DNA from: a virus | Lineage: Duplodnaviria > Caudoviricetes | Length of the DNA stretch: 46,875 nt | Strand: one strand, 5' to 3' | IMG/VR virus record: IMGVR_UViG_3300023214_000244 | Span: 1-46,875 of that record | Shown here: piece after piece, positions 1-46,875 of the stretch | Numbering within the stretch: the stretch's first letter is position 1 | Layout of the letters: each line of letters opens with the position of its first letter | Program-made: the position numbers and the translations under genes | Notes under the pieces: model-generated | Seen by the model: the letters and a program-made list of their open reading frames with translations, nothing else | What the model was told of the DNA's origin: nothing | The model's database searches: none

Positions 1-106
1 GCCTCCGCAAGGCCAAGTGCGAGTAAGGACCGGCGGCTTGCCCGCGGTGACCGCTCGCAGGACGCGCCCTAAGCGCCGGGATAACCGCCACTCGGCGGGC
101 GCCCTG
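1..106. repeat. Terminal direct repeat (identical to 46770-46875); circular-assembly overlap lying inside the CRISPR leader
   Basis: gcctccgcaaggcc...gggcgccctg is present at both ends of the window; a third copy lies within 378-528. Confidence 0.95.
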
Positions 107-377
107 GCACCAGACACCTTCGGTGTTTATCGGTGCGGCACCAACCCATCCACGCCAGAAGTTGTGTTGACTCCTGGCACCGTACACCTTCGGTGTTCAT
201 CGGTGCGGGGACCGCGAGCACAATCCCCTGTGGGAGCTGCCGGTCTGGCACCGTACACCTTCGGTGTTCATCGGTGCGGGAAGCATCTTGACCGACGAGG
301 CGCTGGCGGTAGCCTGCTGGCACCGTACACCTTCGGTGTTCATCGGTGCGGGACTGGCGAAGCAGCGGAGTCCTCCC
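104..377 (+). CRISPR. CRISPR array unit 1: 4 repeats of 35 nt (104, 174, 245, 317), spacers 35/36/37 nt and a short 26-nt fourth spacer
   Basis: Repeat CTGGCACC(A/G)(G/T)ACACCTTCGGTGTT(C/T)ATCGGTGCGG with unique spacers; hairpin GCACC..ACACC-TTC-GGTGT..GGTGC; orientation inferred from leader position and distal degeneration. Confidence 0.95.
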
Positions 378-525
378 AATGATGCGGGACTCGCTCGACC
401 CTATTGGCAATCATTACTTTAGGCCTCCGCAAGGCCAAGTGCGAGTAAGGACCGGCGGCTTGCCCGCGGTGACCGCTCGCAGGACGCGCCCTAAGCGCCG
501 GGATAACCGCCACTCGGCGGGCGCC
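378..525 (+). promoter_or_regulatory. Second copy of the 148-nt structured CRISPR leader / possible ncRNA scaffold
   Basis: Matches 46725-46872 with 2 substitutions (gggacTcg vs gggacCcg; ttggCaat vs ttggTaat); directly abuts repeat at 526. Confidence 0.85.
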
Positions 526-995
526 CTGGCACCAGACACCTTCGGTGTTCACAGGTGCAGCGGGCTCGAACAGCCGCCGTACAGCGCTGTGGATCAGACT
601 GGCACCAGACACCTTCGGTGTTCACAGGTGCAGCAACAGGATCAAGGCTGGCCCGGATTCTCCTTCGACACTGGCACCACACACCTTCGGTGTTCACAGG
701 TGCAGCACGCAGATATAGCAGGGGTCGATGGAGAGCGGAGGGTAACTGGCACCAGACACCTTCGGTGTTCACAGGTGCGGCTACACTCGCAGCGTCCCCT
801 GCGAACTCTGGCTCCTCTGGCACCATACACCTTCGGTGTTCATCGGTGCGGCATGCCCATTGCGCTCCGGGTCAGGTACACCAGATGACTGGCACCATAC
901 ACCTTTGGTTTTCATTGGTGCGGAGGAGACTGCGGCCCACTGACATCTTGGATGAAGGGCCTGGCACCATGCACTCTTGGTTTTCATTGGTGCGG
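526..995 (+). CRISPR. CRISPR array unit 2: 7 repeats (526, 599, 671, 746, 817, 889, 961), spacers 36-40 nt, last two repeats degenerate
   Basis: Repeat CTGGCACCAGACACCTTCGGTGTTCACAGGTGC(A/G)G, drifting to CTGGCACCATGCACTCTTGGTTTTCATTGGTGCGG. Confidence 0.95.
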
Positions 996-1202
996 CGCGC
1001 TGTGGGATGTTCACTGGTGCGGCTATGAGGCACTTCATTGGTGCGGCGACAAGCTGCTGAGGCATCTATGATGCGGGTACGGCACCGGCAAGCGAGGTGC
1101 GGCTAACAGTTGGCATGGGAAAGTCAGCGCGTGTCAGTCAACCGGCATTCGTGGTGCGGAGACATGGAAGAACCGACTGCATTCGGACGAAAGGGAGTCG
1201 CG

Positions 1203-3742: not shown

Positions 3743-3973
3743 GTGGAAGACGGTACCGAGGGGCATCAGCCGACGCCTGAGGCCGTGGAGGCCTTGCACG
3801 ATCCGGCGAAGCGGTTCGTGGAGGATGTCGGGCCGGACACGGCGCAGTGGCTGGCCGAGGCGGTCCTGGTGTATTGCCAGGAGGCGAGGGATCGGCTGGA
3901 GCACGTCAGTCATGTGACCACACCCGAGGGGCGATCCTGGCGGATTGCGGTCAGCCATCGGGGGGATGCATGA
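3743..3973 (+). CDS. Hypothetical protein
   Basis: GTG after GGGAGG; ATGA overlap with the methyltransferase. Confidence 0.45.
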   Translation: MEDGTEGHQPTPEAVEALHDPAKRFVEDVGPDTAQWLAEAVLVYCQEARDRLEHVSHVTTPEGRSWRIAVSHRGDA

Positions 3974-4605
3974 CGTTTGCCAGGGAGATTCTGCCCTGTA
4001 TCGGCAAGCTGGTGCGCGAGGGCGACCGGGTGCTGGACATCGGCCCGGGGAGCAGCTCGGAGGCGGCTCGGGTGTTCACCTCATTGGGCTGCTACGTGGA
4101 GGGCTTCGACCTGTCGGGCCGGGCTGAGACGGTCCACAGCCGGCATACGGTGTTCGACATGGATTTCATGGAAAGTGCCGTGTGGAAACGGTCGGATCTG
4201 ATCTGGGCCTCGCATGTACTGGAACATCAGCGGGATCCGGGGTTGTTTCTGGATCGCTGCTTCGAGTTGCTGAATGAAGGTGGCTGGCTGGTCGTGACCG
4301 TGCCGCCGCGGAAAGATCAGATCGTTGGCGGGCATGTGAGTCTGTGGAATATGGGACTGCTGCTCTATCATCTGATTCTGGCCGGGTTCGATTGCTCGCA
4401 GGCGTCGTGTCTGGCGCATGGATATAATTTGACGGTGGCGGTGCAGCATCCGGGGCAGTCGCGGTTGCCCGGCGGGCTGGTCATGGACTCGCCGGATCTG
4501 GCGGTGCTAGAGCGGGCCGGGCTGTGGCCTGCGGGCCTGGCCGTGGGGAAGACCTTTGACGGGAGCGCCATCGAGGCGATCAATTGGCCGCCCACAGCTG
4601 ACTGA
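3970..4605 (+). CDS. Class I SAM-dependent methyltransferase
   Basis: Motif I VLDIGPG, post-I GFD, DLIWASHVLEH, LNEGGWLVVTVP. Confidence 0.85.
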   Translation: MTFAREILPCIGKLVREGDRVLDIGPGSSSEAARVFTSLGCYVEGFDLSGRAETVHSRHTVFDMDFMESAVWKRSDLIWASHVLEHQRDPGLFLDRCFELLNEGGWLVVTVPPRKDQIVGGHVSLWNMGLLLYHLILAGFDCSQASCLAHGYNLTVAVQHPGQSRLPGGLVMDSPDLAVLERAGLWPAGLAVGKTFDGSAIEAINWPPTAD

Positions 4606-4615
4606 AGGAGTCACG

Positions 4616-4972
4616 ATGTTTCACGTTCCTGAACGTTGTCGGGTGCTGGAGGGCTGCATGGCGTCTGACGCGAGCTACGGCAACAACGGAGCCTTTCGTG
4701 TGGTCGTGTCTGGGACCCGCTGCGTGGCGATCGCGTCTGATGGCATGGGCTGGGAGCACGTCAGCGTCCGACCCGCCAAGGCCAAGCGCACTCTGACCTG
4801 GGAGGAGATGGCCGCGGTCAAGGACCTGTTCTGGGACGAAGAGGATTGCGTGGTGCAGTACCACCCGCCTAAGTCGGAGCATGTCAATTGCCACCCCTAC
4901 GCCCTCCACCTGTGGCGACCGACTGGGGAGGAGCTGCCGCGGCCGCCTAGCATTCTAGTAGGGCCCCGCTAG
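4616..4972 (+). CDS. Conserved phage protein (GWEHVSV / WEEM..VK..FW / HLWRP family)
   Basis: AAGGAG RBS; motif pattern recognised from a widespread uncharacterised phage family. Confidence 0.75.
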   Translation: MFHVPERCRVLEGCMASDASYGNNGAFRVVVSGTRCVAIASDGMGWEHVSVRPAKAKRTLTWEEMAAVKDLFWDEEDCVVQYHPPKSEHVNCHPYALHLWRPTGEELPRPPSILVGPR

Positions 4973-4981
4973 GGCCTTTTT
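4960..4981 (+). terminator. Rho-independent terminator
   Basis: GGCCC-cgcta-GGGCC followed by TTTTT. Confidence 0.6.
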
Positions 4982-4992
4982 CAGGCGATTTA

Positions 4993-5020
4993 TTGCCCTA
5001 CCATTATTTTGTGGTAACCT
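4993..5020 (+). promoter_or_regulatory. Putative promoter TTGCCC-16-(TG)-TAACCT, probably giving a leaderless mRNA for the 5027 gene
   Basis: Same architecture as 7250-7277; ATG 6 nt past the -10; no SD. Confidence 0.5.
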
Positions 5021-7239: not shown

Positions 7240-7277
7240 TGCAACTCAGTTGCATAACCACAGATTCGTGGTAACTT
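7240..7277 (+). promoter_or_regulatory. Putative promoter TTGCAT-16-(TG)-TAACTT overlapped by palindrome TGCAAC-TCA-GTTGCA
   Basis: Seen in sequence; related palindrome at 44364-44376. Confidence 0.5.
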
Positions 7278-16329: not shown

Positions 16330-17730
16330 ATGCATTGTGTGATCGGCGTGGGGGATGGTCAGCGGGTAGCTGAGCTGCAGGCCTCGGGCGAGCGGGTGGT
16401 CGCCTTGAGTTTGTGCGAGGAACAGGCGCCGAAGAATGTGGAGACTTACGCCGTGCGTTCGGGCCATGATGCCCGGACCGCGGCGTGTCTTTTGTTTGGC
16501 ACGCATGTGTCGGCGGTGGACCTGGTGGACGCGGTGTTCCACGTAGAACATTCGGTGGGTCGGCTGGAAGAGTATCGGCAGCGGGTGCTGCAGGAGTTCT
16601 TTCGCTCGTTGGAGAGCGTCCCACACGTCTGGGGCAATTCGACCATCGATGGCCTGTGCGGCCTGGTCAACGTGGCTACGAATGCGGAGCAGCTACTGGG
16701 TTGCCCTGGGTTGCGTCGGGTGACGGATGCGCCGGCCATTGCGGTCGGCGCCGGTCCGAGTCTGGGCGATCACCTGGACGAGTTGCGGGAGCTGTCGCGG
16801 AGCTGTGTGATCGTGGCCTGCGATGCGGCGCTGCGTCCGCTGTGCGAGGCCGGCGTCACGGTGCATGCCGTCACGCCCTTGGAGCGGCTCAACAGCACGG
16901 CGGCGAAGATGGCCGAGGGGACGGCGCAGCTCTACGCGGGCACGCCCGTGGTGCCGCCAGCGGCGGTGCGGGGGTGCGAGCAGTACGCCTACGTGCCGCA
17001 AGGGGACGGGCTCTACGACTGGCTGGAACGCCGGGCGCCGCGGCCCTACGTGGGATCGACCTCGGGCAGCATGGCGGTCGCGGTGGCATTGGCTCTGACC
17101 AATGGGCCGTTGTACCTGGTGGGCCTGGACCTGTGCCCGGACGGGGCACAGACGCACGTTGACGGGGCCGCTTCGGCCGAGCACTTCGATTTGGGACACA
17201 GTGCGGTGGTCCGGCACAACGGGGGCGGCGCGGTGCGGACGCGCTTCGACTGGGCCCGGTCGGCTACCGAGATCAGCACCATGATCCACGGACGCCGGGC
17301 GGCCAATGTCGGCGCGGCGGAGGGGCGCGGGGTGCTGATCCCTGGCACGGTGCCCGAACGGCTGCCCAGCGGCCTGCCCGACATGGAGGCCATTCAGTGG
17401 CCCGATGAATACGATTCGGTACCGAACCAGACGTGGTGCGACCGGGCCCGCCATCTGGGAAGCGACTGGCTGGACCTGGTCAACAACGTCTGCTTTCTGA
17501 AAGAATTGTCCGGTCTCCAACTGGATGTTTTGATGCCGAAGCGTAACGTGGACGCGGTGTCCTACTTGCTGCGGCCCTTGCTGGCCCAGTTGTCGGTAGA
17601 GCGACGGCTGGGGCGTGACGAGAGGCAGCTGTTGGGGGTGGCTCAAGAGCGGCTGGCGAACATGACCGAGCAGTGCCTGGACGTGCTGGAGGAGGTGGCG
17701 GATGTCGCTGCGTGCGGCTTTTCCCGATGA
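16330..17730 (+). CDS. Maf/DUF115 (MptE-like) family protein, putative glycosyltransferase
   Basis: AIAVGAGPSL, VIVACDAAL..L...GV..H.V...E, GSTSGSMAVAVALAL..PLYLVGLDL. Confidence 0.75.
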   Translation: MHCVIGVGDGQRVAELQASGERVVALSLCEEQAPKNVETYAVRSGHDARTAACLLFGTHVSAVDLVDAVFHVEHSVGRLEEYRQRVLQEFFRSLESVPHVWGNSTIDGLCGLVNVATNAEQLLGCPGLRRVTDAPAIAVGAGPSLGDHLDELRELSRSCVIVACDAALRPLCEAGVTVHAVTPLERLNSTAAKMAEGTAQLYAGTPVVPPAAVRGCEQYAYVPQGDGLYDWLERRAPRPYVGSTSGSMAVAVALALTNGPLYLVGLDLCPDGAQTHVDGAASAEHFDLGHSAVVRHNGGGAVRTRFDWARSATEISTMIHGRRAANVGAAEGRGVLIPGTVPERLPSGLPDMEAIQWPDEYDSVPNQTWCDRARHLGSDWLDLVNNVCFLKELSGLQLDVLMPKRNVDAVSYLLRPLLAQLSVERRLGRDERQLLGVAQERLANMTEQCLDVLEEVADVAACGFSR

Positions 17731-38299: not shown

Positions 38300-38554
38300 G
38301 TTATGATGTCTCCTGCCCGTGTGGGCGTGTGTGGGTCATGTTATGATGTCTCCTGCCCCGGTCAGGGGCGCTGTGGGCCGGTCAGGCCCGGTGGTGCCCC
38401 GGTCGGGGGCGGTGAGGTGGTGGTGGTACTGCCTCGCCCCCGGCGCCACCACAGCACCAGGGGGTCATCAGCAGGCCGGCCGGGCCGGCGGTGTCCGCCG
38501 CCTACGGGTGGTTCAGCGGACGCTATCGCGCCGCTGATCGTTGACGTTACTGAC

Positions 38555-39214
38555 TTATCTTATGACCAGACCGCCATCGAGGGCCTCGACCCGGCCGCCG
38601 GCGTAGGCCTCGACCCGGCCGCCGGCGTAGGCCACGACCCGGCCGTCGTCGTAGGCCTCGACCCGGCCGCCGGCGTAGGCCGCGACCAGGCCGCCGGCGT
38701 GGGCCAGGACCCAGCCGTCGTCGTAGGCCTCGACCCGGCCGTCGGCGCGGGCCACGACCTGGCCGCCGTCGCGGGCCGCGACTAGGCCGCCGTCGCGGGC
38801 CGCGACCAGGCCGCCGTCGCGGGCCTCGACCGAGCCGCCGTCGCGGGCCGCGACTAGGCCGCCGTCGCGGGCCGCGACCAGGCCGCCGTCGCGGGCCTCG
38901 ACCAGGCCACCGCCGCGGGCCGCGACCAGGCCGCCGTCGCGGGCCTCGACCGAGCCGCCGGCGTGGGCCTCGACCAGGCCGCCGTCGCGGGCCTCGACCG
39001 AGCCGCCGGCGTGGGCCTCGACCAGGCCGCCGTCGCGGGCCTCGACCCGGCCGCCGTCGCGGGCCTCGACCGAGCCGCCGTCGCAGGCCGCGACCGAGCC
39101 GCCGTCGCTGACCTCGACCCGGCCGGCGACCACGACGTGGCCGGTGACCACGACGTGCTCTGTGATCGTATCACCGAGTGCGTCCCACTCGGCCTGTGTG
39201 GTGATGATCTTCAT
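38555..39214 (-). CDS. Octapeptide-repeat (V-E/A-A-R/Y/H-D/A-G-G-x) solenoid protein
   Basis: More than 20 tandem 24-bp units; AGGAG RBS. Confidence 0.75.
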   Translation of the reverse strand: MKIITTQAEWDALGDTITEHVVVTGHVVVAGRVEVSDGGSVAACDGGSVEARDGGRVEARDGGLVEAHAGGSVEARDGGLVEAHAGGSVEARDGGLVAARGGGLVEARDGGLVAARDGGLVAARDGGSVEARDGGLVAARDGGLVAARDGGQVVARADGRVEAYDDGWVLAHAGGLVAAYAGGRVEAYDDGRVVAYAGGRVEAYAGGRVEALDGGLVIR

Positions 39215-39343
39215 GGCTTTTGCTCCTGTTCGGGGTATCTGAGGCCCTGGGCTCCCCCGCCGGGGCTCTCACCCCCCGGCGGGATCGTCGCGCGCAGGCA
39301 CTCCGTGCAGGCCACCCGTGCGGAGACGGGCAGCGGGTGGGGG

Positions 39344-39556
39344 TCAGGCTCGGCGGATCACGTAGGATGGGACGTAGATCGGCACCACGGCGTCCTCGCC
39401 GACGACGTCGCAGGAACCGGAGAAAGCCATGCGGCTCCCATCGGTGAACTCGATCCACTGGATGTCCTGCTCCTGGCCGCCGGCGTAATTCTTGCGGGTT
39501 TCGGTCTGGACGGCGGAGATGGTTTTGCCGACTACCCATCGGGATTGGAAGCCCAT
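39344..39556 (-). CDS. Hypothetical protein
   Basis: AGGAGACAC RBS from the intergenic repeat (MGFQSRW...). Confidence 0.6.
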   Translation of the reverse strand: MGFQSRWVVGKTISAVQTETRKNYAGGQEQDIQWIEFTDGSRMAFSGSCDVVGEDAVVPIYVPSYVIRRA

Positions 39557-39560
39557 GGTC

Positions 39561-39709
39561 GTGTCTCCTGTACTAGGCCCTGAGTGGGCCGGTGGTGCCC
39601 CGGTCAGGGGCGGGGTGGTGGTGGTGGCTCGTCTGGCCAGGGCGCGGGCGGGGACTCCGGTCCCCGCCCTGGTCCTGGTCAGCGAGTGGTCAGGACCCGG
39701 TAGACCCTC
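39561..39709 (-). repeat. Structured intergenic repeat (other copies ~38347-38426, 40767-40896, 41112-41152 partial, 41617-41768)
   Basis: Shared GGGCGGGGAC-tccg-GTCCCCGCCC, (GGT)n, GCCCC-ggtca-GGGGC, GGCCC-tgagt-GGGCC and TGTCTCCT blocks. Confidence 0.9.
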
Positions 39710-40761
39710 TCCGAGACCCCACCGGCGTCGACGCCGAGCGGCAGCCGCAGCACGCGACCCAGTCGCACGTCGCCGTCGCGGTCGATCTCGACGTCCTGGT
39801 CGTCCCGCTCGTCCTCGGTGGCCGGGCGGTACAGGGTCACCCACTCGGGGGTCTGCTCCTCCACGGTCACGTCCTGGACGTCGATCCCCAGGCCCTCCGC
39901 CACCTGCGCGCGCAGGTGGTCGACCTGCGCCCGGACCTGCGCCCGCACCCGCACGGCGTCGGCGGGCAGGCAGTCGGCGTCGGTATCCGACATGGTGCCG
40001 GTGTGCTCGGGCATATCGCCGCCCGGCAGGTCGTCGGCGGCGTCCCGGATGGAGCCGGTCACGACCGCGACGGGCTCGCGCTCGCACAGCTCACCGGCCT
40101 CCCACGCCTCGACGCAGTCGGGCAGGTGCCGGGCGACGACCGCCGCCAGGGTGGCGCGACGGCGCTCGGCCTGCTCGGCCTGCTCGGCCTTGCGCTCGGC
40201 GCGGCGGGCCTCGATCTGCCGCTCCTCCTCGGCGCGGCGGGCCTCGACCTGCGTGCGCAGGTCGTCGGGGAGCAGGTAGGCGTGCCGCACGCGGTCGAAG
40301 GCCACCTCGCCCGCCAGGTAGCGACGCGCCGACGCCTCGGCGTCGGCCGTCGCCTCGGCGAGCGCCTCCGCGACGCGGCGCTGCTCCTCCGCCTCGATAG
40401 CGGCGACGTCGGGGCGCAGGTGCTCCAGGGCGAGCTGCGTCGCCTCGTCCGGCGTCAGGGGCGCGTCGAGCGGATCCAGTCGGCCGGTATTTTTCGCCCC
40501 GCTGAGCGCACCGGTACCGTCTCGGTCGGTGACCGCGTTCGCGTAGGCCTTCCGCGGCGCGCGGACCAACTGATGCAGATCGATCGACGCTCCCCCGCCC
40601 GAGGAGATCTCGGCCAGCTGGAGCAAATCCGCCGTGGCGGGCACGTCGACGTGCTGCCCGCAGCTGCCGTCCTGCCCCGCCAGCAGGGCGGCGCGCTGGC
40701 CGTCCTGGGATAGGGTGTAGTGGATGCGCACGGTGGCGCTGGTGGTGGTCTCGGTGCTCAT
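39679..40761 (-). CDS. Hypothetical protein, 360 aa with coiled coil
   Basis: Long ORF bounded by intergenic repeats; AGGAGACAC RBS. Confidence 0.7.
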   Translation of the reverse strand: MSTETTTSATVRIHYTLSQDGQRAALLAGQDGSCGQHVDVPATADLLQLAEISSGGGASIDLHQLVRAPRKAYANAVTDRDGTGALSGAKNTGRLDPLDAPLTPDEATQLALEHLRPDVAAIEAEEQRRVAEALAEATADAEASARRYLAGEVAFDRVRHAYLLPDDLRTQVEARRAEEERQIEARRAERKAEQAEQAERRRATLAAVVARHLPDCVEAWEAGELCEREPVAVVTGSIRDAADDLPGGDMPEHTGTMSDTDADCLPADAVRVRAQVRAQVDHLRAQVAEGLGIDVQDVTVEEQTPEWVTLYRPATEDERDDQDVEIDRDGDVRLGRVLRLPLGVDAGGVSERVYRVLTTR

Positions 40762-40897
40762 GGTAGGTGTCTCCTGCCCCGGTCAGGGGCGCTGTGGGCC
40801 GGTCGGGCCCTGGTGGTGCCCCGGTCAGGGGCGGGTGGTGGTGGTGGCTGTCTGGCCAGGGCGCGGGCGGGGACTCCGGTCCCCGCCCTGGTCCGGG

Positions 40898-41116
40898 TCA
40901 GGCGCCGTCGATGTGGTCGCGCAGCACTTGGCCGGCGCGGCCCGCATCCCCCACGGGGATGCGCTCGTGGACGGTGCCGTCAGGCATCGCCACCTCGTAG
41001 TGGTCCCCGCGGCGGGTGAGCACTGACATGATGTGCCCTCGAGACACGCCCCCATGGCGCAGGGTCCCGACGAACCCGCGGAAGTCTTCGGGGCGGATGT
41101 GGTAGATTTTGCGCAT
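40898..41116 (-). CDS. Hypothetical protein
   Basis: Repeat-borne RBS. Confidence 0.6.
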   Translation of the reverse strand: MRKIYHIRPEDFRGFVGTLRHGGVSRGHIMSVLTRRGDHYEVAMPDGTVHERIPVGDAGRAGQVLRDHIDGA

Positions 41117-41417
41117 GATGCTGTCTCCTAGGTGTGGCCCTGAGTGGGCCGGGTCGTGGGGTGGTGGGAGTCGGCTTTACGCCGCCGACTCAGGGGCGCG
41201 GGCGCCGGGGTGAGCGGCGCCCTGGGCCGGGTCATCCAGGCGTCAGCGGTCTGTGCTGCGGCAGATCCGGCGGAGAGCTGAGACGCTGCTCACCAGGACC
41301 CCGTCTACCTCGACCCCGGCATCCGCACCGTCGCGAGCCAGACGCTCCATCGCGACCTGTCGCGTGATGGAATACCGTATACCGGACAGTCGCAGCACGG
41401 TGTAGGTATGTCGCATC

Positions 41418-41621
41418 TCACACGTCGAGCAGGGCCAGACGGGCCCCGATCGACCCGAGGTAGGCGCGCAGGATCGCGGGGTCTACCGCATCAGAGTCGA
41501 CGTGCTCGCTCAGCGCGTGCAGATCCCGCCGAGCGGTCCGGAGAAGCTCTTCGGGGCTGAGGTCGCCGAGAGTGCGGGTGCGGGCGCGGGTGCTCATGTT
41601 GTCGTTGGTGGTGGTGCGCAT
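41418..41621 (-). CDS. Hypothetical protein
   Basis: Repeat-borne RBS. Confidence 0.6.
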   Translation of the reverse strand: MRTTTNDNMSTRARTRTLGDLSPEELLRTARRDLHALSEHVDSDAVDPAILRAYLGSIGARLALLDV

Positions 41622-41741
41622 GATGCTGTCTCCTAGGTGTGGCCCTGAGTGGGCCGGTGATGCCCCGGTCGGGGGCGGGTGGTGGTGGTGGCTGTCTGGC
41701 CAGGGCGCGGGCGGGGACTCCGGTCCCCGCCCTGGTCCTGG

Positions 41742-41855
41742 TCAGCGGGTGGCCAGGACCCGGTAGACGGTCTCCGCGAATGGCCCCATGGTGTCCAGCG
41801 CGTAGCGCGCTCGCTGCGGCGACATGCGCGGCGACGTGTCGGGATTGAATCGCAT
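41742..41855 (-). CDS. 37-aa ORF / chimeric remnant ending VYRVLATR
   Basis: GGAGGG RBS; 3' end nearly identical to the 3' end of 39679-40761 (VYRVLTTR). Confidence 0.45.
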   Translation of the reverse strand: MRFNPDTSPRMSPQRARYALDTMGPFAETVYRVLATR

Positions 41856-42307: not shown

Positions 42308-42338
42308 GTTTTCTCCTTCAGTGTGCTAGGGTTAATTA

Positions 42339-42518
42339 TTAGAACGGGTTGTCCCAGTGATAAGCCCGCGGGTGTCCGTCTTTGGCCAGGCTGTCGGTCC
42401 AGTCGTTCCAGGCCTCCCGCATGGCGATGACATCGCCGCGTCCGTATTTCTGGCGGACAAGCGGGGCGATTTCCTCGCGAAAGTATTTCAGGGCTTCTCT
42501 CTTGGTCATGTGTCGCAT
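42339..42518 (-). CDS. Small phage protein (D..A.REAWNDWTD.L.KDG type)
   Basis: Motif plus AAGGAGG RBS. Confidence 0.65.
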   Translation of the reverse strand: MRHMTKREALKYFREEIAPLVRQKYGRGDVIAMREAWNDWTDSLAKDGHPRAYHWDNPF

Positions 42519-42543
42519 GACTCCCTCCTTCAGTGTGCTAGGG

Positions 42544-42684
42544 TTAATTATTAACAGGGACAACAACCGTTGTCCTGTAGCTGCCTTTGTGAAGGCGAAA
42601 GGCGCGGAAAAGCCGGCCATTGCGTATGGTGGAGAAGCACAGTCGCCATCCTTGGGCCAGCGCTTCTTGTTCCGTGGTTGGCAT
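42544..42684 (-). CDS. 46-aa hypothetical protein (MPTTEQEALAQGW...)
   Basis: Motif plus AAAGGAGG RBS; stop abuts the next motif. Confidence 0.5.
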   Translation of the reverse strand: MPTTEQEALAQGWRLCFSTIRNGRLFRAFRLHKGSYRTTVVVPVNN

Positions 42685-42774
42685 GGGATGCCCTCCTTTG
42701 TGCATGGTGTGCTAAGGTTTCGTTGAGGCTTGGCAGCCATAGGGCCCCCGTGATCCACGGGAGCCGAATGGCCG

Positions 42775-43053
42775 TCATCGCAAGGTGTTGTCTTGGCATT
42801 GGTCCGCAAGCCATTGCACCTCGCGTGCCAAGCCATCCAGTTCCGACGCTCGTTGAAGGCGCATATGCGCCCCTTCCTGGTCGGCATCCGATCGAAGGCA
42901 CCTTGCGGCATCTTCGAGCTGCTCGCGTGTGATCGGTTGGGCCTTTACCCCCTTGCTAATGGCAAGCATACGTGAGCCGACCGAATATACGGGGCACGAT
43001 TGGCCGTTGTGCCAGTCGAGTAGGGCTAGGGCTAGTCGTTTGTCGTTCATCAT
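42775..43053 (-). CDS. Hypothetical protein
   Basis: Motif plus GAGGA RBS. Confidence 0.6.
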   Translation of the reverse strand: MMNDKRLALALLDWHNGQSCPVYSVGSRMLAISKGVKAQPITREQLEDAARCLRSDADQEGAHMRLQRASELDGLAREVQWLADQCQDNTLR

Positions 43054-43112
43054 GATCGATTCCTCTGTGTGCTAGGGTTGTGTGTTATTTATTGGCAATG
43101 TAGCGCAGCACG

Positions 43113-44119: not shown

Positions 44120-44362
44120 ATGGACGCACAGCCGGATCCGAGACATCGTATGGTGCAGATCATCGACCAGTACCGACAGGCGCTAGGCTACTCCGGACGG
44201 CAGCTGGCCCAGGCCTCGGGACTGGAGCGGCGGACCGTGACGGCCGTCCTATCCGGCCAGACACTGAGTCCCGGACTCGAGGTGGTAGACGCCATGAGCC
44301 GGGCCTTGGGCATTCAATGGGAGCCGCGCCACCTGGCCACACTGCCGCGGCTCGATCCCTAG
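44120..44362 (+). CDS. XRE-family HTH regulator
   Basis: YSGRQLAQASGLERRTVTAVLSG...PGLEVVDAMSRALG; TAGGAT 7 nt upstream suggests a leaderless mRNA. Confidence 0.8.
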   Translation: MDAQPDPRHRMVQIIDQYRQALGYSGRQLAQASGLERRTVTAVLSGQTLSPGLEVVDAMSRALGIQWEPRHLATLPRLDP

Positions 44363-44475: not shown

Positions 44476-44526
44476 AGCGGAACGGGAACGCCAGCGGAAC
44501 GGGAACGCCAGCGGAACGGGAACGGC
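44476..44526 (+). repeat. Three tandem 17-bp repeats AGCGGAACGGGAACG(C/G)C
   Basis: Copies at 44476, 44493, 44510. Confidence 0.85.
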
Positions 44527-45185
44527 AGTCGACAAAGGGGGGCCCTATATGGGGGCCCCCTCTGCAGTTACGCTCACGGGAGCGGGACGGGAAAGAAGAG
44601 GGAGGCGGGAGCGGGAGCGGGAACAGGAAGGGGAAAGGGAAGGGGAAGGAAAGGGAACTGGTTTCCTCTTGGCGTAAGACGTTGGTGGGACGGTAGATAG
44701 AGCATGGGGCGGCGCTATCCGGGCCCTATAGCGCGAGAGTCCCCCAAGTGCTTGCTGCGACAGTGGATAGGGCAGAGGCAGGACATGGTATCGGGACAGG
44801 CAGGACGATAGGCAAGCGGGCGCGGCTGCGGCGGATTAGCTGTAAGTGCAGTGCATGACGGCAGCTAGCGTGCAGGCAGCCAGGCCTGGGCGGGATCAGT
44901 GCCCGGGGGGGTACGTCCCAACCCCGGGGGTACTCTATCTAGTCCCCCAACCTCCCCCTCCCGAAAAAATCCCAGCCCCGTCACCTGCAGCAGCCCCCGT
45001 CCCGCTTTTCTGAAAAATCCCGCTCCTGGTCTCTGGTCTCTGCGTTTTCGTGGGCGGATGGCCACCCCTCCCAACCCAAGGGGTGGCCACGGTCGCCGAA
45101 CGTCGGGTTCGGGAACTGGGGCTTGCACGGTGTCCCAGGTGGGCCAGAGTGGGCGGTCCCTGAGCGCAACTTGGTTGGAGCTTTT

Positions 45186-45530: not shown

Positions 45531-46729
45531 AAATCACCTGTCCGGTCACCCAGAGGGAGATTATGGCCAAGCCGGCCAAGGATGGTGGGGTCAAGGTCCC
45601 GCGTGGCTGGAAGCGTCACGATGGGCGGATCTATTCGCCGGAGGGGTGGCGCAGCCGGTACATGTTGCGGTCTGTGACGTTTCCTGTGGCCTCGATCGAG
45701 GTGGAGGAGGGCGAGACCAAGGAAGCGGTTTGGAAGGCGTTCCGGGATGCGTGCCATGAGGCGTGGATTTTGACGACCCAGGCCAGTAACTTTCTCATGA
45801 CGGAGTTTGCTCGACAGGATCCGGCTTTGGCTGGGTGGTCGGAGAAGATGCCGAAGATGGCGGCGCCGTATCTGTATCCGGTTGTGCGGGAGCGATTTCC
45901 TGGCCTGCCGTCGATGTCGGTGGTCTCGCTGTGCCAGTCGGTGTGGGGCAAGTATAGCTCCCATCGATTCGCCGTGTCCATCGGCAAGGAATCGCTGCCG
46001 ACGCATCGCTATCCGACGCCGATCCCGATGCATAACCAAGCGTGGAAGACGGTGTTGGTCCATGGTGAGTGCCCTGGCGTGTCTCTGCGTCTGGGGGATC
46101 GTCGGTGGACGCTGCGCTTGCGCGGGGGTCACGGGTTTCACCGGCAGCGGCGGGCCTGGGATCAGATGCACAGCGGGGAGGCCGTGCGGGGCGAGCTGGC
46201 GATCTATCAGCGCAATGCTGGGTCAACGCATCGCCCTGGCGCCACGGGCAAAAAGGAAGTCTGTGTCAAGCTGGTGGCGTGGTTGCCCAAGTCGGAGCAT
46301 GGGCCGCGGGATGCGGGAACGTTGTTCTGCCGGACCGATGCCAGTGCCCTGTTGGTGGCGCTGAACACGAAGGACCACCAGCTGTGGACCTATCATGGGG
46401 ATCACATTCGTCGGTGGCAGGCCGAGCACCGGGAGCGGCTGCAGCGCTTGGCTGACGACTCGAAGTTAGAGGATCGCCGCCAGGGCATCCCGTTTGCGGA
46501 TCGTCGGCGGGCGGAATGTGCCCGCTTCAATCGGCGCATGAAGAGCGCGGCCCAGCAACTGGCGGCCAAGGCGGCCGGGTATGCCAGACGGCGGCGGTTC
46601 GAGGCCGTCAAGTTGACGCTGGGGACGGACAAACCCGACTTTGTCTGGCATCAATTCGTCACCTGCCTGGAGCAGAAGTGCGACGAGTTTGGTTTGGAGT
46701 TCGAACAAGTCGAAATGCGAGCAGAATGA
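45527..46729 (+). CDS. Miniature (~400 aa) TnpB/Cas12-like CRISPR effector with degenerate, truncated RuvC; probably nuclease-dead
   Basis: Adjacent to leader+array; WED-like SLPTHRYPTPIP and LRLGDRRWTLRL; bridge helix; helix RRMKSAAQQLAAKAAGYA; FVTCLEQKCDEFG matching TnpB 'L.YKA...G'; no GxD RuvC-I, no RuvC-II Glu, ends before zinc finger/RuvC-III. Confidence 0.75.
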   Translation: MKITCPVTQREIMAKPAKDGGVKVPRGWKRHDGRIYSPEGWRSRYMLRSVTFPVASIEVEEGETKEAVWKAFRDACHEAWILTTQASNFLMTEFARQDPALAGWSEKMPKMAAPYLYPVVRERFPGLPSMSVVSLCQSVWGKYSSHRFAVSIGKESLPTHRYPTPIPMHNQAWKTVLVHGECPGVSLRLGDRRWTLRLRGGHGFHRQRRAWDQMHSGEAVRGELAIYQRNAGSTHRPGATGKKEVCVKLVAWLPKSEHGPRDAGTLFCRTDASALLVALNTKDHQLWTYHGDHIRRWQAEHRERLQRLADDSKLEDRRQGIPFADRRRAECARFNRRMKSAAQQLAAKAAGYARRRRFEAVKLTLGTDKPDFVWHQFVTCLEQKCDEFGLEFEQVEMRAE

Positions 46730-46872
46730 TGCGGGACCCGCTCGACCCTATTGGTAATCATTACTTTAGGCCTCCGCAAGGCCAAGTGCGAGTAAGGACC
46801 GGCGGCTTGCCCGCGGTGACCGCTCGCAGGACGCGCCCTAAGCGCCGGGATAACCGCCACTCGGCGGGCGCC
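46725..46872 (+). promoter_or_regulatory. 148-nt structured CRISPR leader / candidate scaffold RNA
   Basis: Starts at the effector stop codon and ends at the first repeat base; stems AATGAT/ATCATT, GGCCT/AGGCC, GCGAG/CTCGC, CCGCC/GGCGG. Confidence 0.8.
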
Positions 46873-46875
46873 CTG

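Follow-up and report, generated by a model that had tools for sequence, protein, structure and literature searches.

Several RNA-guided systems that have already been described offer points of comparison for the phage locus reported here. In the available parts of the account by Hoffmann et al. (PMC13472631, Extended Data Fig. 1a,b), a cluster of nuclease-dead Cas12f proteins with a common C-terminal truncation was found near CRISPR arrays, with a covarying RNA upstream of the array and no rpoE; these array-associated proteins appear there as predicted repressors only, and the example presented, from a Chitinophagaceae MAG, bears a guide directed at an efflux promoter. The same source, in those parts, covers the dCas12f-sigmaE activators, in which RuvC-III is lost, and which are accompanied by an adjacent rpoE gene and a single fused guide without an array, and recognize a G TAM. 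The Cas12m proteins of subtype V-M, as presented in the available text of PMC11013384, interfere by binding, also within genes, are carried on mobile elements, use no tracrRNA, keep a zinc finger and are larger. Prophage TldR (bioRxiv 10.1101/2023.11.30.569447, available part) is a nuclease-dead, RNA-guided protein of temperate phages, aimed at a host gene by one fixed promoter guide in the absence of an array, and Al-Shayeb et al. 2020 (PMC7162821, available part) reported a V-F protein of huge phages, 'dCas14', lacking one catalytic residue and unaccompanied by cas1 or cas2, for which a spacer matching a bacterial tRNA synthetase gene was noted and repression was proposed. In the available sections of Altae-Tran et al. 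(PMC10691335), a lineage model leads from an array to a half repeat and then to a fused single guide. Because array-associated dCas12f, inactive V-U groups and phage 'dCas14' are all described in the available parts of this literature, the kind of module considered below is already known; the literature searched held no account of the phage clade, its PAM or its restriction-modification (R-M) target, tables beyond that search may include its proteins, and the available supplements of PMC12669027 gave no hits.

The window analyzed here, 46,875 nucleotides in length, is the whole circular genome of a phage (IMG/VR record IMGVR_UViG_3300023214_000244, Caudoviricetes, Duplodnaviria, positions 1-46,875), whose ends share an exact terminal repeat of 106 nt and which encodes a terminase, a portal-like protein, a capsid protein and a tyrosine integrase. 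A CRISPR module spans the record ends, with the gene and the start of the scaffold at the 3' end and the array at the 5' end:

45563-46729, plus strand: effector gene, 388 aa (P0001), predicted Cas12f fold with the nuclease site lost
46725-46875 then 1-103, plus strand: scaffold copy 1, tracrRNA-like, directly 3' of the effector stop codon (46770-46875 = 1-106)
104-377, plus strand: array unit 1, repeats at 104, 174, 245 and 317, spacers 1-4
140-173, 210-244, 281-316 and 353-377, plus strand: spacers 1-4, spacer 4 having been shortened by duplication
281-316, plus strand: spacer 3, external target at 33/36 with TTC 5', on a 410-nt contig of run X3
378-525, plus strand: scaffold copy 2, two substitutions relative to copy 1
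526-996, plus strand: array unit 2, repeats at 526, 599, 671, 746, 817, 889 and 961, spacers 5-10
562-598, plus strand: spacer 5, exact external target over 38 nt in runs X2 (contigs of 1290 and 1582 nt) and X3, TTC 5'
782-816, plus strand: spacer 8, 34/37 match on a 235-nt contig of run X3 with TTC 5', within a type I R-M hsdM gene
997-1160, plus strand: eroded tail of five 3' half-repeats (ends 1023, 1047, 1077, 1103 and 1160) with short unique stretches between them

We consider it rather likely that this is a phage type V module whose nuclease-dead, Cas12f-like protein would bind TTC-flanked DNA by means of an RNA guide and thereby block transcription. Most of the blocked sites would lie within genes, belonging either to the host or to mobile elements resident in the same cell, and a type I R-M operon would be among them. 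Direct support exists for the succession of gene, scaffold and array, for the fold, for catalytic residues having been lost throughout 91 sequences, for covariation in the scaffold and for three TTC-flanked targets, one of them in hsdM; DNA binding, repression, the loading of half-repeat guides and a benefit to the phage are what we infer from these.

Likened by description to the Hoffmann cluster, the module displays the same truncated dCas12f, covarying RNA and array without rpoE, and differs in its carriage by a phage, in a TTC PAM read from natural targets and in an intragenic target in hsdM. It shares the Cas12f fold and the loss of RuvC-III with the dCas12f-sigmaE activators (9n9c, Foldseek E 8e-16), whereas it possesses no sigma gene, a real array of 11 repeats in place of a single fused guide, and TTC rather than a G TAM. 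Unlike Cas12m, it includes a scaffold and lacks a zinc finger, and its structural match to Cas12m is much weaker (E ~1e-6); in contrast to the single promoter guide of TldR, its array is variable and its targets lie mostly within genes. Compared with 'dCas14', the host element is a 47-kb phage, the whole of RuvC-III is lost and the target is a defence gene. Relative to type V-F in general, the Cas12f fold, a size (388 aa) that accords with the expected 400-600 aa, a structured RNA region beside the array (covarying across 19 loci) and a 5' T-rich PAM (TTC at 3/3 natural targets) were all found, and an intact RuvC D-E-D motif and C-terminal zinc finger were not. Cas1 domains were sought in five viral records, the phage record among them, and none was found, so that the module does not carry the cas1 of an autonomous CRISPR-Cas system.

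The effector itself matched nothing in Pfam, NCBIfam or PHROG. A profile built on the alignment of 91 sequences (P0001 and 90 homologs) matched the Cas12f chains 9nzq (2e-9) and 9n9c (5e-5), the latter a dCas12f, and thus lies nearer to active Cas12f; the same profile retrieves 743 clusters at E values up to 1e-30, which, by sequence, make up a large family without annotation. The predicted structure (pLDDT 93.4) returned Cas12f proteins as its top Foldseek matches, at a TM score of ~0.6, with AsCas12f at E 3e-17. In the alignment to 9nzq, the column of the RuvC-I aspartate is occupied by arginine in 66/91 sequences and is replaced in P0001, that of the RuvC-II glutamate is aspartate in 73/91 and threonine in P0001, and the proteins stop short of RuvC-III. 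A C-terminal zinc finger is present in 0/91, and an N-terminal CxxC pair, found in 56/91, is absent from P0001. As judged from these comparisons and from the predicted model, the effector is related to Cas12f and lacks a nuclease site.

The effector reading frame ends where scaffold copy 1 begins, across the circle, and each array unit is directly preceded by the same scaffold sequence of ~150 nt. Nineteen scaffold plus first-repeat sequences, picked by eye from relatives, indicated four helices with 20/24 pairs covarying, and 88.5% of scaffold cells were paired as against 66.4% in shuffled and 32-47% in slid alignments, values to which the repeat's own palindrome contributes. The fold of the single phage sequence was unremarkable (z -0.34), and Rfam and ARAGORN gave no matches on the sequence. 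In an uncontrolled calculation, pairing between the first repeat's 5' half and 3' repeat halves, tail remnants included, was possible at -6 to -14 kcal/mol, and scaffold and 5' half together would act as a tracrRNA that pairs with the 3' halves of later repeats; such pairing with 3' halves would explain why old units have been worn down to those halves. As a separate observation, an inverted pair GCGAG...CTCGC, defined by a loose pattern, straddles the effector stop codon (46715-46750) in 16/28 scaffolds, as if the RNA started within the end of the effector gene.

Within the array there are 11 palindromic repeats in the two units (104-352 and 526-996), and their length is set at 36 nt by the targets, which lie flush with the spacer borders and carry TTC directly 5' of 281, 562 and 782. 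With these borders the spacers start at 140, 210, 281, 353, 562, 635, 707, 782, 853 and 925 and measure 34-39 nt in the real array, and a contig covering 324-438 reads across the junction at 378; it comes from run X1, possibly the source sample.

Relatives of the module were found at 18 and then 13 IMG/VR loci (four of the latter on contigs already counted) and in seven Acidobacteriota MAGs, and while the repeat sequence varies among loci its hairpin is kept. Some members of the family have full arrays, others half-repeat arrays and others a single guide, a range that mirrors the path drawn in the available sections of Altae-Tran et al. (PMC10691335). In five relatives (L018, L008, L007, L005 and L003) the effector is followed downstream by an extended series of 3' half-repeats, each 7-15 nt long, with up to ~58 units and short spacers counted by a rough pattern in L018 (11351-13333), and these half-repeat arrays gave no sign of self-targeting when compared with their own records. 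A single guide stands alone in 6/7 of the Acidobacteriota loci. In three of these (L024, L025 and L027) the guides share their first 11-13 bases, which suggests a domesticated regulator with a conserved target; in a search of five genomes the shared word proved common also in the absence of that guide, and after inspection of 30 matches no target was assigned.

External targets were sought by aligning the contigs of three metagenome runs from the same study (X1-X3) to positions 1-1300, and were found for 3/10 spacers (3, 5 and 8), all flush with the spacer borders and with TTC directly 5', in flanks of 30 nt from that one study. In the phage-free run X3, all three contigs that align to 1-1300 fall on these spacers; given a TTC background of 1.7% per site, three of three such matches would not be expected by chance. 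TTC before each target thus supplied the PAM. The preliminary description had reported no full self-match, and this was borne out, the longest in-phage matches being 10-13 nt, as in shuffled sequences.

The best-understood target is that of spacer 8, which corresponds to the hsdM sense strand (translation YTRSVPCELWL) and whose target flanks, read by eye, stay in frame, with two Phe codons before the spacer. The same spacer was found independently in an acidobacterial hsdM gene (28/35 nt with TTC) that encodes a 711-aa HsdM with N6_Mtase and HsdM_N domains and is followed by a second ORF; because hsdM is conserved, the X3 match may be a homolog of the true target, with TTC contributed by conserved Phe codons. 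Across 401 Acidobacteriota genomes, 77 contained weak matches, and among the 35 regions inspected only the hsdM region combined TTC with a long match. For spacer 5, both strands of the 98-nt context are open in one register and the first and third positions are GC-rich (by eye), which indicates coding DNA. The spacer 3 target is ambiguous, since an AT-richer 5' flank closes the three plus frames and one minus frame is open (by eye), and it may lie at the start of a gene, in a promoter or within a gene on the minus strand. Chance partial matches of 35 nt are frequent (68 in X3 over 19.4 kb, many of them where the sequence is repetitive and rich in GC), so the spacer 3 assignment rests on its borders and flank. 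A metagenome scan with this spacer gave three further hits with 20/20 but only 25-26/36 identities and no TTC, two of them in pilM genes, which were treated as chance; matches of the array to E. coli and to a Helicobacter phage were rejected for want of any spacer-length match.

The composition of the spacers agrees with intragenic targeting. Under a codon model (AUC 0.81, trained against a small intergenic set of 17 segments), the ten spacers scored 1.25, as compared with 1.64 for held-out coding sequence (p 0.27) and -0.62 for intergenic DNA (0/5000 draws reach their score). Forty spacers from related loci scored between the two and nearer to coding sequence, though below pure coding sequence (p 0.005), so that some of them may be intergenic. 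A second defence-gene target was not found for the arrays of relatives L020, L022 and L120 in 351, 151 and 301 genomes, respectively, and no PAM-flanked target emerged for these or for L127 in the searches made.

These observations lead to a mechanism in which an adaptation module of the host would probably supply the spacers in trans. The combination of 34-39-nt spacers with a TTC PAM presumably resembles that of type I-C. TTC-flanked DNA would then be bound without cutting, and the bound protein, by analogy with Cas12m, would stall RNA polymerase; because the DNA is not cut, chromosomal spacers would be tolerated, and a spacer could persist if it turned down a type I R-M operon. Silencing of hsdM, a gene that may be chromosomal or may belong to a rival element, would reduce hsdS as well and hence restriction, which may benefit a phage that bears an integrase. 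More tentatively, and with some doubt on our part, the phage family may run an adaptive CRISPRi of its own, in which dead Cas12f borrows host spacer acquisition, keeps anti-defence guides (type I R-M) and loads half-repeat guides of 7-15 nt, one scaffold thereby serving dozens of ultra-short guides.

The weight of the finding lies in the natural PAM and the defence-gene target, and not in the motifs that were first reported. With its TTC PAM, exact spacer borders, covarying scaffold and defence-gene target, the locus offers a natural setting in which array-associated dead Cas12f can be tested. If hsdM repression is true, it would constitute programmable, RNA-guided anti-restriction by a phage, and the 388-aa binder would provide a miniature CRISPRi tool of natural origin. 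A return from CRISPR to one fixed guide has been proposed to pass through a series of stages, and these are represented in the family by its complete arrays, its half-repeat arrays and its single-guide loci.

Among other explanations, the strongest, although we regard it as unlikely, is that the module serves only as a weapon between elements. It would be directed against rival phages, plasmids or integrative elements, whose replication or essential genes it would block, and hsdM would be a mere passenger on such an element. R-M systems are often carried on mobile elements, which would suit such a passenger, and the targets are absent from the run in which the phage is deepest. Precedents exist in Cas12r and Cas12m (10.64898/2026.04.20.719267 and PMC11013384, available parts). 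A spacer of relative L126 (415-444) further resembles its own phage, matching a palindromic intergenic site (4946-4985) at 27/30 with seed mismatches and a GTC instead of a TTC flank, as would be seen for a sister phage. Read by eye, that site seems to be flanked by a LuxR-like HTH stretch and a terminase-like ORF. The match points towards a regulatory site of a sister phage as the target; such a site was searched for and none was found. Against the weapon reading, exact 20-mers of spacers 3, 5 and 8 gave no hits in IMG/VR, and BLAST of the array against phage and plasmid records returned weak matches only, none of them convincing.

The preliminary description had drawn another conclusion, namely that spacers were selected for promoters and ribosome-binding regions, which in its TldR-like form amounts to promoter occlusion, and which we now judge improbable. 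The words on which it relied are all where it placed them (TTGACC at 288-293, TAGCCT at 310-315, TTGACT at 167-172 and the SD-like words), with the qualification that the first A of the AGGAG said to open spacer 10 is the last base of the repeat. The supposedly full sigma70-like promoter in spacer 3 agrees with 8/12 consensus bases, whereas a sigma-70 scan needs nine and found no site in 1-1300. Its 16-nt geometry does recur at 4993 and 7250 in the form TTGnnn-16-TAnnnT, but the genome total is 8 against 6.25 in block shuffles. These latter two sites (4993-5020 and 7250-7277) both have GTGGTAAC at the -10 box, a sequence that occurs nowhere else in the genome.

When motif frequency was compared with permuted backgrounds, in classes picked after the spacers had been seen, the spacer borders first used gave SD-like words in 5/10 spacers versus 1.1-2.3 in four nulls (p 0.001-0.05) and -35-like words in 4/10 (p 0.04-0.11), with no enrichment of -10-like words. 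At the true borders the mild excess weakened to 4/10 versus 1.65 for SD-like (p 0.058), 4/10 versus 1.58 for -35-like (p 0.055) and 7/10 versus 4.1 for any motif (p 0.066), -10-like words again showing none; the full promoter of spacer 3 (1/10) had p 0.012, or 0.023 with a looser rule. Related spacers, with near-duplicates and those shorter than 32-33 nt left out, did not repeat the excess: SD-like words occurred in 0/38 spacers from 10 loci, and 82 spacers from 17 loci were at background (SD 8 versus 11.8 expected, -10 5 versus 15.8, -35 19 versus 13.9 with p 0.065, full promoter 0/82, any motif 31 versus 35.6). Although the spacer 3 target could straddle a gene start, and the intergenic L126 match precedes a large ORF, the hsdM and spacer 5 targets are intragenic, and the spacer set scores as coding. 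The TACACT and reverse AGGAG of spacer 8 are codons within hsdM, and the promoter-like and SD-like words seem mostly to be incidental codons. What survives of the proposal is silencing of the CRISPRi type, which fits a nuclease-dead Cas12f effector.

Equally improbable is that dead Cas12f recruits a partner, such as a sigma factor, an integrase or a host nuclease, and so activates transcription or directs recombination. The nearest characterized dCas12f recruits sigma-E and works even within gene bodies (PMC13472631, available parts), and the phage encodes a tyrosine integrase; that gene, however, lies ~15 kb from the effector, whose neighbours are small ORFs of no assigned function, and a Sigma70_r2 (sigma-70 region 2) search found none in the phage record and one in 1/4 relatives, there far from the effector.

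Very unlikely, too, is that scaffold copy 2 and array unit 2 are served by an internal promoter in spacer 3. TTGACC-16-TAGCCT does precede copy 2 in the same orientation, at p ~0.01-0.02 for the set of ten, and no conserved -10 box precedes the scaffolds themselves (6/28). Those 8/12 consensus bases, however, belong to a sequence whose external, PAM-flanked target marks it as acquired, the 45 nt upstream of copy 2 are shared with copy 1, and duplicated scaffolds with their own sub-arrays occur also in relatives L008 (the second at ~13.2 kb) and L011. That the module has lost its function and is decaying as a relic, as its lost catalytic residues, eroded repeats and absent adaptation genes might imply, is the least credible of these explanations, given a truncation kept family-wide (743 clusters), a covarying scaffold and a spacer that still exactly matches a local target.

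Elsewhere in the phage genome, searches with the integrase, terminase and capsid named no host, and no integration junction was recognized. The genome encodes an MptE-like protein (16330-17730) and a SAM methyltransferase (3970-4605), and contains a 24-nt tandem repeat (38444-39224), which encodes on the minus strand a protein (38555-39214) built on a repeat of eight residues. Intergenic elements of 40-90 nt recur upstream of small minus-strand genes at 38347-41745 and 42313-43087, regions that also contain a repeated AT-rich 29-mer, and are likely to be early-gene promoters or recombination sites. Low-complexity GGGAAC/GGGAAA repeats at 44480-44640, 3' of a gene for an XRE-type HTH protein (44120-44362), mark a possible origin region.
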